64,000 nucleotides of DNA from Bdellovibrionales bacterium (lineage in GTDB: Bacteria > Bdellovibrionota > Bdellovibrionia > Bdellovibrionales > UBA1609): contig CBDCMT010000001.1 of the NCBI GenBank assembly GCA_965219095.1, positions 1,120,001 to 1,184,000 of the forward strand, in the 5' to 3' direction. Positions 42,001-51,000 of this stretch are shown here, one piece after another (positions within the stretch are counted from its first letter, which is position 1; each line of letters starts with the position of its first letter). The position numbers are program-made.

Positions 42001-45000
42001 TTATACACTGAATCGTAACTTCAAAAACCCTCTTTTTATCTAAGCTATAAAAATAGGCTTTTAAAGCACAATTAGTATAGTAAAAATCATATGAAAGGAA
42101 AGGATTTTGAAAAATTTTAAAAAAAAGTATCTTGTTGCTTTATCCTCTATGTTGGCTCATCAAGCCTTTGCAGGTTTTATGTCTTTAAACCCTCTGTTCC
42201 ATCCCTTAGCTAATGATTTAGTTTGCAACGAAGAAACAAAATTTCTTTGCAAAAAAATAGGCTTAAAGAAAGAAGAAGTTATTGATACAGAAAAACTTCT
42301 CAGCCAATCAGACTTCAAAATAGACTACTCCCTTTTTAATCCTAAGGAGAGTGATATTTGGAAAAATAGAAAGCCTATTAAAATTTCTAATCCTCGTTTA
42401 ATAGAAGATCATAAGAAGGTTAAATTTAGAGAAGTGTCTCCTGTGGGATCTGGCATGTTTCGATTTCTTATAGAAGATAAAAAGGGACAGCAATATCGTT
42501 TTATTATTGGAAGGAAGTCTCACAATATTTTATTACGGCGGGCCCTTCTAAGAAAGCTGGGATATATCGTTCCTGATTCCAGTCACGTTAAAAAAGTGTC
42601 CGTTGAATTCAAAAACTCTGTAGCATGGAGGACTTTTCTAAAAAACATGTCCTACGGTGTAGGAACTTCTAACTTATCTAGATGGGTGACTAATATAGAT
42701 AAAAAATCTCTGGAAGATCATCCAGACAAAACAAAATGGGTTATCAGAAAAGAAGCCTCATATGAGAAGAACACATTAATTCTACAAGATGTTATTGTTA
42801 CAACATCTTGGGATCAACTGTACGATTTATCTATCGTCTTCATTAGTTCTGTTATGAAGAACAGAAGAGTTTTCAATTCTCTTCTGATTCCTTATGCTTT
42901 AGTTGATGTACCAGAAAGTTTCAATAAATTCAATTGGAATATGGGAAAACAAACCAACGAACAAATTTTTTTTAAAAGTGATTTCTTAAAAGACTTTCGT
43001 ATGGGATATGAAGATGGGAAATGGATAGCAAAAAAAATACTTGATCTTGAAAGAAAAGATTTTGAAGACATTGTTAAAGAAGCTGCACTTCCTCAACCTG
43101 TATCTCTTCTAGCTATAGAAAAACTCATTTCTAGGAGGAATTCTTTGTGCCTTATTTTCTTTCCTAATAAACAGTCATGTATTATGGAAATTGATTTTAA
43201 AAAAACAGATCCGCAACATCCTCATCTTTTGAAAAACGGTCGCCTCCTCTTAGATACTAAAAATGGTGATCCTAAAGATTCAGACCATTGGTGGGAGGGT
43301 TATGGCTCTCGATTTTCTTATGGCCCTGATGAAGCTCCTCTTTCACGAAAAGAAATGACAGCCTTTTTTACATCTCAAATCTTTAGTAATCTTATCTCTA
43401 ATTTTGTAAGTGATATCAACAAAGATTTTCTCCCTAACTCAGATAACAGTATTCAAAGGAAAGCCTATAAAGAGTATACTGAAGATTATCAAAACCAAAT
43501 CATCGAAAGAATCATGGAGGGTAAAGAACCTAAAAATAGAATCACCTCTCTTAAAAATTGGTCAAAAGATATTCTTTATGTTCGCCTAAATGCTTCTCGA
43601 GATATTATTTTTGGAGGTTATTTAGGAACAAGCCACAACATTCAATTAGTTCACTCTTTTGGATGGGCTGTAGATGCAGGTTGGTTTTTAGGATCTCATG
43701 GTGGTCCTAGGGATCTCTCTCTTTCTGGAAGATCTGGCTTAGCTTACTCAGAAAATTACACGCAAGTCACCCCCTCTATAAGTATAAAAGAGGCCAATAA
43801 GACTCCTTATAAAAACATCTTTGTTCATTTTATGATGAAAAAAGTAAGTGAGAAATTAAACAAGGTAAATGATCTGAAAAAAAAGAAAGAGATGGATTTT
43901 CAAAACAATCCTCAATCTACGAAAAAAATAAAAGAGGAGGAAGAAAAATTAAGAAACGAATTAAGTGAAATTTTAAATGAGCATTTAAAGGTGGGAGAAT
44001 CTTTTATCATTACAAGAAATATAGGACCTTTTGCAGCTTTAAATGCCATTTTATCTATCAGCCCTCATACAAAATTATCTTTGAATTTAAGAAATCAAAT
44101 TACAGAGTTAGAAAGAGTTCATATTCTTAGAAAAGACCAAAATACAGTTCACATTTATTCCTCTAATGCTACTCGTTTTAATTGGGGCTTCACTCTACAA
44201 TTAAGAAAATGGATACCTATTTTTACTTATAAAAATAGAAAGGCCAGATCTGTTCTGAAGCCTGTAAATGTAAAATTCCTTTCTTTAAATATACTTCCAG
44301 ACATCAAAAAAAACCCTGAATTTGAACAAAATTCTATAGTTTTGAAGAACTTTTTTTCTGAACCTTTAAGCACAGAAAATATTTCAGATTTCATTGATGC
44401 GAAAGATTATGTTGAACTATCTAGCCATTTTACAGAAAGTTTCAAAGATTTTAAATTTTTATGGCAATCCTCATCCACTTTAGAGCAAAATAATATTATT
44501 AAAGTAAAAGAATACAAAAATAAGGAGCCTTTTCAAAAAAAATTCATTTGGGCATCTTCAGGTAAAAGGACTGGAGTTAATTATCAAAGTGTATTTCTTG
44601 ATATCTTAAACCATATTATAGAAGAAAATTTAGGCCTTGAAGACATTAATGTGGGATTAACAAACACAAATCGACCTTCAGAAACTATTTTTGGCCATTC
44701 TACAGTCCAGCAGTCTTTCTATGAGGGAGTGATCGAAGAAGAAACACAAAACGTAAAAGAAGCTTTTGTCAACGTTTCTTATCGCTGGAAAGGCTGGGCT
44801 CTTTCTAAAGAAAAGCTGGAAGCATTAATACGCAAACTCAATTCCTTTCAAAAATCCTTACAGGTCAAAACAAACCTTCCACCTCTTCCTATTAGTTCTT
44901 TTTCTCTAACAAATCAGCTTCAACTTTATTCTATCTTTTATAATATTTATATCTATGAAAAAGGAATCCAAAATATAGCTAATTGGGGAAAGCCTTTGGA

Positions 45001-48000: not shown

Positions 48001-51000
48001 TTTCGCATTTCTAAAGACAAGGTTCTTCCTTCGGAATCTTATGTCTTTATTCGACATTACAAAGATTTAGAAAAGCCCTCAAGAGTACTCATAAGTGGAT
48101 CAGAGAATAACTCTAAAACTGCTAGTGTGTTTACCCCTTCCTTTAAAAATAAAAGTGATAGGTTGACTTACTTTAAAAAAGCGTATGAAACAGATGAGCA
48201 TTACATTGTTTTTTATGAATCTCAAAATCAAATTATAGCAAAAACTATACCTCTTTCAAAAAAAGACAACTTAGAAAACTTTACAAGAGAAAATAAAGAG
48301 GGAAAAACTTTCTTTAAGCGAGTCATTCGCTCCGCTCTATTTCCAGATGTCTTTTTTAGCGAAAGACTTTCTCCTTTAGTGATTAAGAGAGGGACAGTTT
48401 TAAAACCAGCTCTATATGTCAATGCATCAGAAATCTACTCTCAAAAAGTTTTCCTTTGGTTCCTTGATGAACACAAGGGAGAATTTTTTGCACCTATAAA
48501 GTACAGCCTTAAAGTTCCTAAAAATTGTCTTAGTTTAAAACCTACTCCTTACGGCGAAGGTGATGAATATAAAGCAGTTTTTATGTGCCAAAGAAAAAAA
48601 GACTCCAACATCTTTTGGACCCTTTATTATTACACTTTTAATTAGGGCATGTCGTCAATTAATCTAACCAAACCATAAAGAAGCTAACATAACTTAAAGC
48701 TAAGAAGTGTTTTCTCTTTTTGATAGACATACCGGGAGACCTTTGAGTGCATATTGATAACAATTACAGAAATTAATTCGACGGTAAATCAAAAAGACAG
48801 GTCACTGGTTTAAGCCATGATAGTGACCCTAAAGTACTTGCAGAAGGAGGTGAGCTTTTCGAGACAAATTCTAAACCCTTTAGCTGGCCTGGTTTTTAAG
48901 GCCTCAAAGGGAAAAGCAAAAAAAAGATGTAAAATAGGATTTCAAGACTTTATTTATAAATAAACCAACAAAGGAGGAAAATAAAATGTATGATCACTAT
49001 ATAGCCGTAGATTGGGCACAAAGTAACATGGCCATTTCAAGGATGACAGGCAAATCAAAAGATATTAAGAAAGACTATGGACACGATTTCAGATCTTGGG
49101 AATCTTCGTGCCTATTTAAAAACTCTGAAAGGTAAGAAGATATTGACTATCGAAGAGACTACAACTTCGATAGTGGTTGTATTCAGAATTAAAGGATAGT
49201 GTTGATGAGTTCATAGTCTGTGATCCTCTTCGGAACAAACTTTTAAGTGAAGGGGCTAAAACTGATAAAATTGATGCTGAAAAACTTGTTTTATTGTTAC
49301 GCTCTGGCCTTTTGAAACCAGTTTTTCACTCAGGTGATGAATTCATTTACCTTCGTAAGATTGTCAGTGGGTATGAAGATGTGGTTAAAAGAGGAGTTCG
49401 TGTTAAAAACCAAAGATCAGCTCTGTTTCGAGCTTCCCATCTTGATGCTAAGAAGCAGACTCAATTAAAACGGGCAGAAGAGATATATTTGTTCTAGTGT
49501 TCTGACCAGTAAATTTTTTCACAATTTTCAAGCCTTTAATCCAGGTCATTTTATTAAATTATTTTTATATTAAAAAGAATAAAAGTGAAATGTTTAGAGT
49601 TATACCAATTCCAAAAGTTAATTCTACATTTTCATGTATAAGTTTGGATTTTTACTTCTAGAAATTTATAACTTTTAAGTATGGGTAAAGAGTGTATCAA
49701 ATTCATTGGAAAGATATGATTTTCTAATGTTTATATACAATTTAGTTTACAGGCTCTTACAGGCTCTTACAGGCTCGTCTCATTTTTTATAATGGAACTT
49801 TTCTCTGGCTGATTTTCTTGAAAAATTCCATTTTATTATAATCTTCCGTCTGTTCATAATATTCACCCAAGCCTTGGTTCTTTTTCTTAAAGTTTCTATG
49901 TCAGGTATTCTTGATTTTCCTAAACATTGACGAGAGTACATATTGATTGCAATTTCTGCTTGATTTAACCAACTTCCATGACTCGGAGTATAATGAACCT
50001 CAAAGCGAGACCATAGATGCAAACCTCGATCTTTTCCATAAAAATCAGTAAGACTTTTTTTTCTATGAGTGTTCAAATTATCCATAACTAGAACAATCTT
50101 CTTGGAATCAGAATAATGTCTCTCAACAGAAGATAAAAACTTAGCAAAATCCGGACCTGTCCTTCTCTCTGTTACCTTATTCATATAAAAACCTCTCTTA
50201 GGCTCCACAGCACAGAAAACATTTGCTGTACCCTCTCTTTTATACTCATAATCTACTTTTTTTACTTCCGAGGGATGACAACCCGATGGAGGACGAACAT
50301 CATCAAGTAACTGAAGAGGCTTTTCATCAATACACACAACAGGCTTTCCTTTAATCGGAGGCTTCTCATACACTTTCAAAACATCCTCCATCCTCTCTAT
50401 AAATTCATCATTAAGCTCTGGTACACACCAACTCTTCTGTTGCCAAGGTTTTAGATCATGTTCTAAAAGAATAATCCTAACTTTTTCTTTGCTAATAGAG
50501 TCTACAATCTTGTTTTTTTCTGCCCTCTCTTTAATGAGCTCTAAAGTCCATCGATCAAAGCCCTCCGGAGGATCTGAGCAGACTATAGCTATAATCTTTG
50601 ACTTTATGCGATCATCAAACTTTGGAGGTTTTCCAGGACGAGGATCATCTTCAAGAGCTTTTTTCAGCCCAGAATTCTCATAGTTTTTTTGGATGTTGAA
50701 AACAGTTCTAGGAGTTATCTCTAAGTAATCTGCTGTCTCTATGGCAGTTAAATTTTTGTTCCTTAAGTTTAGAACATTGGCTCGATATATGGCTCTTGGA
50801 TTTTTAGACTTCTTTATAATTTTAAGAATTTCTCTCTTATCTTTTGGCTTTAATAAATTTAACATATGAGTATTAAAACATAAAAAAAAAATAAATAAAA
50901 TGACCTGGATTAAAGGCTTGAAAATTATGAAAAAAATTACTGGTCAGAACACTAGAAGGCTTAGATAAAGCTATCAGTTCTTATGGGGAGGAGAAAGCAC

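Follow-up and report, generated by a model that had tools for sequence, protein, structure and literature searches.

The gene for what is here called protein A, which lies in the window (the whole 64,000-nucleotide stretch of DNA that was analysed), encodes a pseudokinase joined to a barrel-like domain of 14 strands, kin to a family of exported kinase-plus-barrel proteins from which it is set apart by the loss of its catalytic core. Together with a giant subtilisin and a small lipoprotein, protein A is best explained, at a probability that we put at roughly 45%, as a three-gene predation module in which an exported kinase has given rise to a surface platform for a predation protease. The protein comprises a Sec signal peptide, the pseudokinase head, two linker helices, the barrel-like domain with its helical inserts, and C-terminal helices; its orthologue in B. 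bacteriovorus is Bd2429 (Q6MKG4). The locus is laid out as follows.

40185..41594, minus strand: DUF772/DDE transposase, the upstream flank, a multi-copy IS outside the module
42107..45496, plus strand: protein A ORF, 1129 aa, with a TTG start and an AAGGA element upstream
42107..42172, plus strand: putative signal peptide I, residues 1-22 of protein A, predicted from sequence
42176..43351, plus strand: head, residues 24-415; catalytic residues are missing from its atypical-kinase fold, which is of the Fam20/CtkA/PI4K2/CotH/HipA kind
42866..42925, plus strand: deletion scar, residues 254-273, where the start of alphaE is joined straight to the end of the activation segment
43352..43519, plus strand: linker helices H1 (416-440, amphipathic) and H2 (446-471)
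43553..45346, plus strand: 14-stranded antiparallel barrel-like domain, residues 483-1080
45347..45493, plus strand: conserved acidic loop and C-terminal helices, no beta-signal
45496..48645, plus strand: subtilisin, 1049 aa, with a signal peptide and no prodomain, orthologue of Bd2428 (Q6MKG5); S8 domain at about residues 28-398, with D92, H158 and S341 intact
49780..50865, minus strand: DDE_3 transposase between the protease and lipoprotein genes, outside the module
52121..52855, minus strand: lipoprotein, 244 aa, with lipobox Cys22, a Gly/Ser tether and no Pfam family; probably the Bd2427 orthologue

The TAA stop of protein A overlaps the ATG of the 1049-aa Peptidase_S8 ORF (45496-48645), and IS remains separate the lipoprotein gene from the protease gene in this window. 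Positions 41739-46873 are covered by one public contig with zero differences, possibly a contig of the source sample itself; among sequencing runs, no RNA run was listed as a carrier. The first-pass annotation had placed the pair at two loci, as is indeed the case (42107-48645 and C2:2056607/2060187), the second protein A and subtilisin being 43% and 42% identical to the first. The third copy that it listed, g02915, falls away, as an HMM built from 66 sequences, run at E<=1, recovers two genome members and no more. Since both length and position agree, g02915 was taken to be the 1147-aa ORF at C2:1939915-1943358, the sole ORF of that length in the expected place; it is unrelated to protein A (hhalign probability 0.4%, BLASTP best E 1.1). 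Also as annotated before, protein A matches no Pfam family (here at E<=0.1), nor does it match any NCBIfam family at E<=0.05 or any PDB sequence at E<=10, and its ESM Atlas matches are unnamed Bdellovibrionota clusters only. The N-termini of its homologues are hydrophobic, with a lipobox pattern in just 5 of 454.

Across Bdellovibrionota, a gene for a subtilisin of ~1000 aa adjoins the protein A gene in 209 of 212 decidable loci, a stronger linkage than the 42 of 46 loci originally claimed. Among 253 distinct protein A genes, the S8 gene is downstream in 204, upstream in 5, undecidable in 41 and absent in 3, absence being scored only where at least 1.5 kb was visible on both sides. The module occurs in about 45% of the sampled genomes of the phylum, with the proviso that for all such genome and locus counts related genomes are not independent samples. 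Other genes around these loci are lineage-specific, each present in at most 16 of 108 loci. A co-evolution analysis of paired protein A and S8 sequences (192 rows) did not set true pairs apart from shuffled ones (top z 11.2 versus 10.2).

The subtilisin matches PF00082 at E 4e-42, and its triad D92, H158 and S341 and the oxyanion Asn N268 are invariant in 58 sequences; no beta-signal was seen at its C-terminus. Residues ~400-505 probably form an Ig-like domain and ~506-1049 an FG-GAP beta-propeller, a lead drawn from an ESM Atlas score of 0.81 and a conserved DxNxDG motif. A prodomain is missing in 109 of 190 paired proteases; because 76 of the 190 retain one, the idea that protein A substitutes universally for the prodomain is weakened. 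The lipoprotein had escaped the first-pass annotation. Of 136 genomes in which protein A has a strong match, 131 contain it, as against 4 of the 165 genomes lacking such a match, and 77 of the 91 loci with flanks have its gene near that of protein A, in one to three copies; a PDB sequence search with it returned linker or repeat-like matches only.

The earlier assignment of a kinase-like head is upheld by its AF2 model (pLDDT 92, pTM 0.92), in which the two-lobed kinase fold is present: VIA alignment to ceFam20 gives Z 8.0 and an rmsd of 4.5 over 228 aligned residues, the best 15 VIA matches are all kinases, and hhalign against motif-intact kinase relatives gives 99.6%, with Foldseek TM-scores that are low (0.25-0.29). 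The fold is that of the Fam20C/CtkA/PI4K2/CotH/HipA/actin-fragmin kinase group (VIA Z 5-8), from which protein A differs in its fusion to a barrel and in lacking the catalytic loop and metal-binding Asp. Some 40-45 residues, spanning the catalytic loop, beta7-beta8 and that Asp, are gone. This deletion is seen in 450 of 450 measurable A proteins, with the two motifs together in none of them, and R254-D303 spacing is 48-70 in these proteins versus 87-117 in 34 relatives. The columns aligned to the relatives' beta3 Lys and alphaC Glu are variable in protein A, whose alphaC carries no conserved Glu; the conserved polar residues of its head are H139, R144, D228, R254, E270, S271 and N273. Judged by its sequence, then, the head cannot work as a conventional kinase.

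Sister families with intact kinase motifs, which the first reading of the genome had missed, carry the beta3 Lys (34 of 34), the alphaC Glu (33 of 34), and the DxK/RxxN and xDxG motifs, with 32 of 34 kinase-plus-barrel and kinase-only relatives keeping Lys/Arg, Asp and Asp. A PDB sequence search with these motif-intact kinases returned nothing meaningful. The A heads fall on one side of a tree branch with support 100/100. An S8 gene adjoins none of 21 kinase-plus-barrel genes, and no such lipoprotein gene was found near the kinase-intact relatives; the dead-core protein A is the only form that stands beside the large subtilisin and the lipoprotein.

The remainder of protein A had been described as a plain outer-membrane barrel with some 20 strands. 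The AF2 model of residues 415-1129 (pLDDT 91, pTM 0.89) shows 14 long strands instead, with the meander order, even strand number and curvature of a barrel. CymA aligns with the domain over the whole chain (Z 15.9, rmsd 6.1 Å), and all 50 matches listed in a wide fold search are membrane barrels, with rmsd values to structural matches of 4-12 Å. Foldseek TM-scores of at most 0.17 were not taken as decisive, because those of the kinase match are low as well. Like CymA, OmpG and Omp85/TamA, the domain lays out its 14 antiparallel strands as a meander whose turns are short at one end, with the long inserts at the opposite end; unlike CymA and OmpG, to which the rmsd is 6-8 Å, it has a wall that is half charged or short, large helical inserts, a helical end and no beta-signal. 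In strand windows picked by eye, S1-S7 have one hydrophobic, uncharged face towards the short turns (55-91% hydrophobic, at most 8% charged), whereas S8-S11 are charged on both faces (20-36%), so that the hydrophobic belt does not extend to every strand. The modelled chain ends in helices, and the last residue is aromatic in only 17 of 130 complete A proteins. With a clean lipid face on strands 1-7 only and no beta-signal, the barrel is thus atypical, and the earlier description of it is borne out only in part. Neighbouring strands couple, and the S14-S1 pair has none among the 260 top couplings; H1 may close the wall between strands 14 and 1. Couplings 321-629 and 314-567 place the head against a long-loop insert, and every insertion of at least 50 aa, ricin-type lectin domains included, lies either within the head or at the end with the long loops, never at the short turns.

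The proposed link of the pair to predation is supported in B. bacteriovorus, where the module genes are Bd2429, Bd2428 and probably Bd2427. The protein profiles of Bd2429 (43 peptides) and Bd2428 (25 peptides) correlate at r=0.97, as co-transcribed genes may even without binding, with a joint peak 1-2 h into predation, and at 30 min of predation Bd2429 is raised 2.0-2.3-fold, with no rise in host-independent growth. Bd2427 follows a course independent of protein A (r=-0.01), peaking at 3 h. In one RNA-seq table both Bd2429 and Bd2428 carry a not-expressed flag, at RPKM 1-5. PMC2797640 counts Bd2428 among the predation genes of Tudor, a second-hand Tn5 result that is possibly polar. The searched tags are absent from the text and eight supplements of a Tn-seq study (PMC6561027), an absence that is uninformative because gene tags there may differ, and PMC12034629 does not mention the module genes. 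In the supernatant of cultures, Bd2428 was found as a free protein in the fraction of 30-70 kDa; an empty bdelloplast listing contains Bd2428, Bd2427 and Bd2430 and, at shallow detection, not Bd2429.

In the module as we picture it, protein A and the subtilisin would cross the inner membrane by Sec. Strands 1-7 and the short-turn end, rich in aromatic residues, would then hold protein A in the predator outer membrane, the short side of the barrel being completed by helices or by contacts within an oligomer. The dead kinase head and helical crown would face outward and serve the subtilisin as a platform for docking, folding or release. The subtilisin would act on prey envelope or periplasmic proteins and be partly shed, and the separately timed lipoprotein would most likely be a holder or inhibitor shielding the predator from a protease that often lacks a prodomain. 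That the barrel anchors or exports the protease is plausible. One parallel is dentilisin (PrcB-PrcA-PrtP) of Treponema denticola, likewise a three-gene system, in which lipoprotein partners hold a subtilisin with a long C-terminal extension at the outer membrane (PMC8167434); it differs in that PrtP is acylated, and in the passages cited no barrel or kinase fold is described. The present subtilisin scores 93 bits against denti_PrtP, below the cut-off of 300, and is not a dentilisin equivalog. Type Va autotransporters (NalP, EspP, EstA) share the order signal peptide, N-terminal domain, helix, barrel; protein A has 14 strands rather than 12, no PF03797 match, an H1 that failed to align with the autotransporter linker helix, and a subtilisin encoded by a separate gene. 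The search listing gave no support to a parallel with the metallophosphoesterase-Omp85 proteins of Bacteroidota, which is therefore set aside.

Proteolytic activation of pore formers is known, and protein A might itself be secreted, the subtilisin removing the dead-kinase cap so that the S1-S7 hairpins insert and oligomerise in the prey membrane, with the lipoprotein as immunity protein and the kinase-intact relatives as kinase-delivering toxins. This is an unlikely reading, to which the conserved linker upstream of H1, the tandem lipoprotein copies, the lack of a beta-signal and the lipid-compatible character of only about half of the strands nonetheless lend some substance. PopA (Bd0427) is a Bdellovibrio barrel of which one side is tall and faces lipid while the other is short; it shows that Bdellovibrio barrels of this short-sided type oligomerise, and they reportedly reach prey membranes (PMC12228718). 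PopA differs from protein A by its 16 strands, its small plug and the lack of a kinase head, and is not among the listed fold matches of the barrel domain. Nor is any pore-forming toxin fold, those matches being membrane barrels throughout, and Bd2429 is missing from the shallow bdelloplast listing.

Rather unlikely, too, is a translocon like Slam, in which the laterally open barrel of protein A would give the lipoprotein passage to the cell surface and the subtilisin would clip the Gly/Ser tether, releasing it into prey. Slam, as far as the cited portion of PMC5449769 goes, has a predicted 14-stranded barrel, an N-terminal domain and adjacent lipoprotein genes, all matched in the protein A module, where the lipoprotein recurs at 77 of 91 flanked loci; Bd2427 and Bd2428 both appear in the bdelloplast listing and Bd2429 does not. 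Yet protein A has no DUF560 or TPR Pfam match, the lipoprotein has no TbpB-like match, the protease is always there, the timing of Bd2427 differs from that of protein A, and the same barrel exists in kinase-intact relatives with no such lipoprotein nearby.

We consider it quite improbable that protein A is an exporter akin to two-partner secretion, with a periplasmic head recognising the protease and passing it through the barrel. Transporter precedes cargo in 204 of 209 pairs, barrel curvature is near that of TamA, Sam50 and BamA, and the protease is found outside cells; against this, neither protein A nor the subtilisin has a Pfam or NCBIfam match to Omp85/POTRA or a TPS domain, both the couplings and the positions of insertions point to the long-loop end as the location of the head, and the kinase-intact relatives have the barrel without a cargo gene. 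The protease, moreover, at ~110 kDa and with conserved Cys pairs, probably folds before export. The active surface kinase of the first-pass annotation, marking prey or activating the protease by phosphorylation, is rejected as highly improbable because the catalytic core is deleted in 450 of 450 A proteins, and the relatives' beta3 Lys and alphaC Glu fall on variable residues, even granting a kinase fold whose seven conserved polar residues could form some pocket.

Returning to the predation module, we tentatively suggest, at somewhat short of even odds, that Bdellovibrionota own a class of envelope machines in which a kinase head sits over a helix-sealed, half-lipid-facing barrel, the standalone forms being active exported kinases, and that in one lineage deletion of the core turned such a machine into a dedicated protease/lipoprotein delivery or membrane-attack device required for predation. 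Also brought to light is an unannotated family of exported atypical kinases with intact motifs, some of which carry the same unusual barrel. Protein A is a clean case of a single deletion that made a scaffold out of an enzyme and that goes with a new partnership of genes. The kit of dead-kinase barrel, giant subtilisin and small lipoprotein is an undescribed one of predatory Bdellovibrio-like bacteria; it is expressed during growth in prey, holds the reported predation gene Bd2428 and is testable in the model strain. If the proposal is true, the device would be a new system for secretion or for damaging prey, and the reported predation defect of Bd2428 would be accounted for; the module bears on how Bdellovibrio puts hydrolases on or in its prey without harming itself.

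Protein A, the 1129-aa product of an ORF with a TTG start, is followed so closely by a large subtilisin that the start of the protease gene overlaps the stop codon of A. The first-pass annotation had recognized this pairing, and the genome does carry two copies of it. A supposed third copy of A (g02915) drops out: a profile built from 66 homologues finds only two family members in the genome, and the 1147-aa ORF that is probably g02915, judged by its length and position, is unrelated. Searched by sequence, A itself matches nothing in Pfam, NCBIfam or the PDB.

Features of the pairs, the lipoprotein family and their surroundings (window coordinates, or genome coordinates on contig C2)
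42107-45496 (+): protein A, 1129 aa, TTG start
45496-48645: subtilisin partner of A, 1049 aa
52121-52855 (-): lipoprotein, window copy, 3.5 kb beyond the protease with IS remains between
31681-32235 and 55499-56002: two DUF6580 membrane proteins, flank region
53192-55352: groEL-groES, flank region
C2:2056607-2063378: second pair of A and subtilisin
C2:552806-553849, C2:827443-828459, C2:2162605-2163525: other lipoprotein copies, apart from both pairs, among IS elements
C2:1939915-1943358 (fetched locus L001:7916-11359): 1147-aa ORF

Multi-copy IS elements lie on both flanks of the window pair. Dense IS remains (DDE_Tnp_1, IS66, DUF772, DDE_3) occupy window 29355-51000, such remains surround both pairs, and reads cover them 10-40 times as deeply as the pair. 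Two positions on the neighboring strands 2 and 3, nearly invariant as Asp and His in the family, are His (residue 516) and Gln (residue 553) in the window copy of A; this is possibly a coupled change.

Beyond this genome, A matches 479 representatives at E<=0.001, and of 301 genomes sampled across the phylum 142 contain a match; six with a weak match (E>1e-15) were left out as probable matches to sister families (relatives with intact kinase motifs), leaving 136. Loci were picked by their match to A, independent of neighboring genes. In the 253 distinct A genes of the fetched loci, from genomes whose kinship makes the samples non-independent, the subtilisin is directly downstream in 204, directly upstream in 5 and absent in 3, with 41 genes too near an end for a decision. 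In a subfamily of ~1200-1370 aa the head carries inserted ricin-type lectin domains (proteins P0020 and P0029; loci L035, L037 and L047), and where loci of the 1200-aa lectin-bearing form were seen, the protease is often upstream.

Clustering of the neighbors at 108 A loci yields a single recurrent family, a lipoprotein of ~230-400 aa that belongs to no Pfam family and in which the Cys is followed by a Gly/Ser tether. A lipobox pattern is present in 132 of its 180 ORFs. One to three copies stand at 77 of the 91 A loci having at least 1.2 kb on each side, and the family is absent from every locus of kinase-intact relatives looked at. Among the 301 genomes, A and the lipoprotein occur together in 131, A alone in 5, the lipoprotein alone in 4 and neither in 161. 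Of the four lipoprotein copies in the present genome, three lie apart from both pairs.

The A-linked proteases keep the triad D92, H158, S341 as well as N268 invariant (58 aligned), and in most of them the catalytic Ser is followed by Gln, where Met is usual. Their C-terminal 650 residues are specific to them; the genome's six other S8 matches cover the catalytic part only. A likeness of this region to CARDB and FG-GAP proteins (score 0.81) is a lead only. Across 190 pairs a prodomain is absent in 109, present in 76 and intermediate in 5, and the window protease has none (window 45496-45800).

The head of A (residues 24-416, model pLDDT 92) superposes on ceFam20 with Z 8.0 and rmsd 4.5 over 228 residues; it also matches CtkA, PI4K2alpha, CotH, actin-fragmin kinase, HipT, MavQ and HipA, the top 15 rows being kinases throughout. 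While a Z of 8 is by itself middling, the fold is settled by a sequence link: a weak match gave access to a 1158-aa paralogue (hhalign 99.3%) and to the sister families. Some of these proteins combine kinase and barrel (1096-1304 aa), others have the kinase only (506-756 aa), and they display the beta3 Lys, the alphaC Glu, the DxK/RxxN loop and the xDxG motif. The Lys/Arg, catalytic Asp and metal Asp are retained by 32 of 34 aligned relatives. The spacing from conserved Arg254 to conserved Asp303, measurable in 450 of 454 non-redundant A sequences, is 48-70 residues in A (49-51 in 434) as opposed to 87-117 in the 34 relatives, and none of the 450 has both the catalytic and the metal motif. In a profile alignment of A with its relatives (99.6%), A shows a gap where the relatives have the catalytic loop, while their Lys and Glu face non-equivalent columns. 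Judged by these alignments, the head is a pseudokinase by deletion. The active surface kinase proposed earlier fails on this point, the catalytic loop being deleted in every A measured, and with it the problem of ATP supply disappears for A. Of 54 head rows, 3 without the anchor motif were left out; an unrooted tree of the other 51 puts the 20 A rows on one side of a branch with support 100/100. We infer that the A head would have lost its catalytic residues, the ancestor having been active. No subtilisin adjoins any of the 21 kinase+barrel genes seen with flanks (one with just 78 bp downstream).

The sister families are exported atypical kinases, unannotated, barrel-fused or alone, at times in tandem, with none in this genome (long forms at loci L233:6259-9735, L264-L268 and L280-L293; short forms at L255, L259, L260, L262, L263, L269-L278, L294 and L295); those scanned have no Pfam, NCBIfam or PDB kinase match. 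Large proteins without a Pfam family (L283:3671-6790 and L286:7419-9539) adjoin two kinase+barrel genes and are possible alternative partners.

The model of residues 415-1129 (pLDDT 91, pTM 0.89) runs through two helices, H1 and H2, 14 long strands (S1-S14) with helical inserts, and terminal helices. All 50 rows listed in a wide fold search are membrane barrels, the best being 14-stranded CymA (Z 15.1, rmsd 7.0); a second comparison gives CymA at Z 15.9 (rmsd 6.1, 250 aligned), OmpG at 13.2 and one ApoB row, and Foldseek TM-scores are <=0.17. Couplings from 454 sequences recover neighboring strand pairs, but S14 and S1 are not paired among the 260 strongest, a signal that is noisy below z ~7. 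At the short-turn end of S1-S7 one face is 55-91% hydrophobic and <=8% charged. The outer-membrane barrel of the first-pass annotation is upheld only in part. In S8-S11 charged residues make up 20-36% of either face, S12-S14 are short, and the last residue is aromatic in just 17 of 130 complete A proteins. As modeled, the barrel is real in outline but atypical. Early strands of many 16-18-stranded barrels align to H1, which weak couplings also link to S1 and S14, so that H1 may fill the barrel wall.

Insertions of at least 50 residues are confined to the head and the long-loop end; in the two proteins for which Pfam gave the head insertions a name, they are ricin-type lectin domains. Couplings 321-629 and 314-567 place a long-loop insert next to the head. 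Because of these sites and couplings, the head probably lies on the long-loop side, outside by convention, and faces away from the membrane. Within the genus Bdellovibrio, PopA provides a precedent for a barrel one side of which is short (PMC12228718).

In Bdellovibrio bacteriovorus a homologue of A is Q6MKG4/CAE80243.1, Bd2429 in a proteome table, which adjoins Bd2428 (Q6MKG5); the two genes share 4 bp, with Bd2427 (301 aa) 56 bp beyond. The lipoprotein is probably the orthologue of Bd2427, since at L113 and other loci of the Bdellovibrio type it has the same position and size. Published data sets bear on all three genes. After 30 min of predation, Bd2429 is induced 2.3x/2.0x, Bd2428 2.6x/2.3x and Bd2427 14x/11x; the same source reports no rise of Bd2429 in host-independent growth and lists Bd2428 among Tudor's Tn5 predation genes (PMC2797640). 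The Bd2429 and Bd2428 proteins both peak at 1-2 h with a change under twofold (PMC12546842), and their profiles in those data correlate at r=0.97 over 11 time points. These data favor a role in predation; others count against it or are neutral. Bd2427 protein peaks at 3 h with a profile unlike that of A. In an RNA-seq table both Bd2428 and Bd2429 are marked as unexpressed (PMC3627812), and Bd2428 is reported from the 30-70 kDa fraction of the supernatant (PMC3898049). In empty bdelloplasts, a data set that by its authors' account includes broken predators, Bd2428, Bd2427 and Bd2430 have two peptides each, Bd2429 not being among them (PMC11003981). Bd2430 is predation-induced, its protein also peaking at 1 h. 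A 355-aa exported protein with no Pfam family (L113:9691-10758) occupies Bd2430's position, upstream of A, at 5 of 108 loci.

We tentatively favor, at a probability of roughly 0.45, a reading in which A would be an outer-membrane platform for the subtilisin and the lipoprotein its holder or inhibitor; paired couplings lend no support to contact between A and the protease. The analysis shows folds, deletion, linkage, co-occurrence and co-expression; location, topology, binding and what each part does are inferences from these. It is unlikely that A is instead a protease-activated membrane-attack protein, for which the lipoprotein would confer immunity. Slightly less plausible again is a Slam-like translocon from which the protease sheds the lipoprotein. 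In its working the A module most resembles dentilisin (PMC8167434) or Slam with its cargo (PMC5449769), yet by membership it belongs to neither. The module likewise falls outside the autotransporters and two-partner secretion, and a two-partner-type exporter is a decidedly improbable account of A. An active kinase is scarcely credible, as the catalytic and metal motifs occur together in none of the A sequences measured.

The literature searched (main texts, mainly open-access, so that a description may exist unseen) holds no account of Bd2429 or of a pseudokinase-barrel architecture. A, its subtilisin and the lipoprotein are a real, undescribed three-gene module, with an anatomy corrected from that first proposed. 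If A is the platform that we favor, its dead kinase head and helical crown would serve in docking the subtilisin, maturing it or releasing it at the predator surface inside prey.
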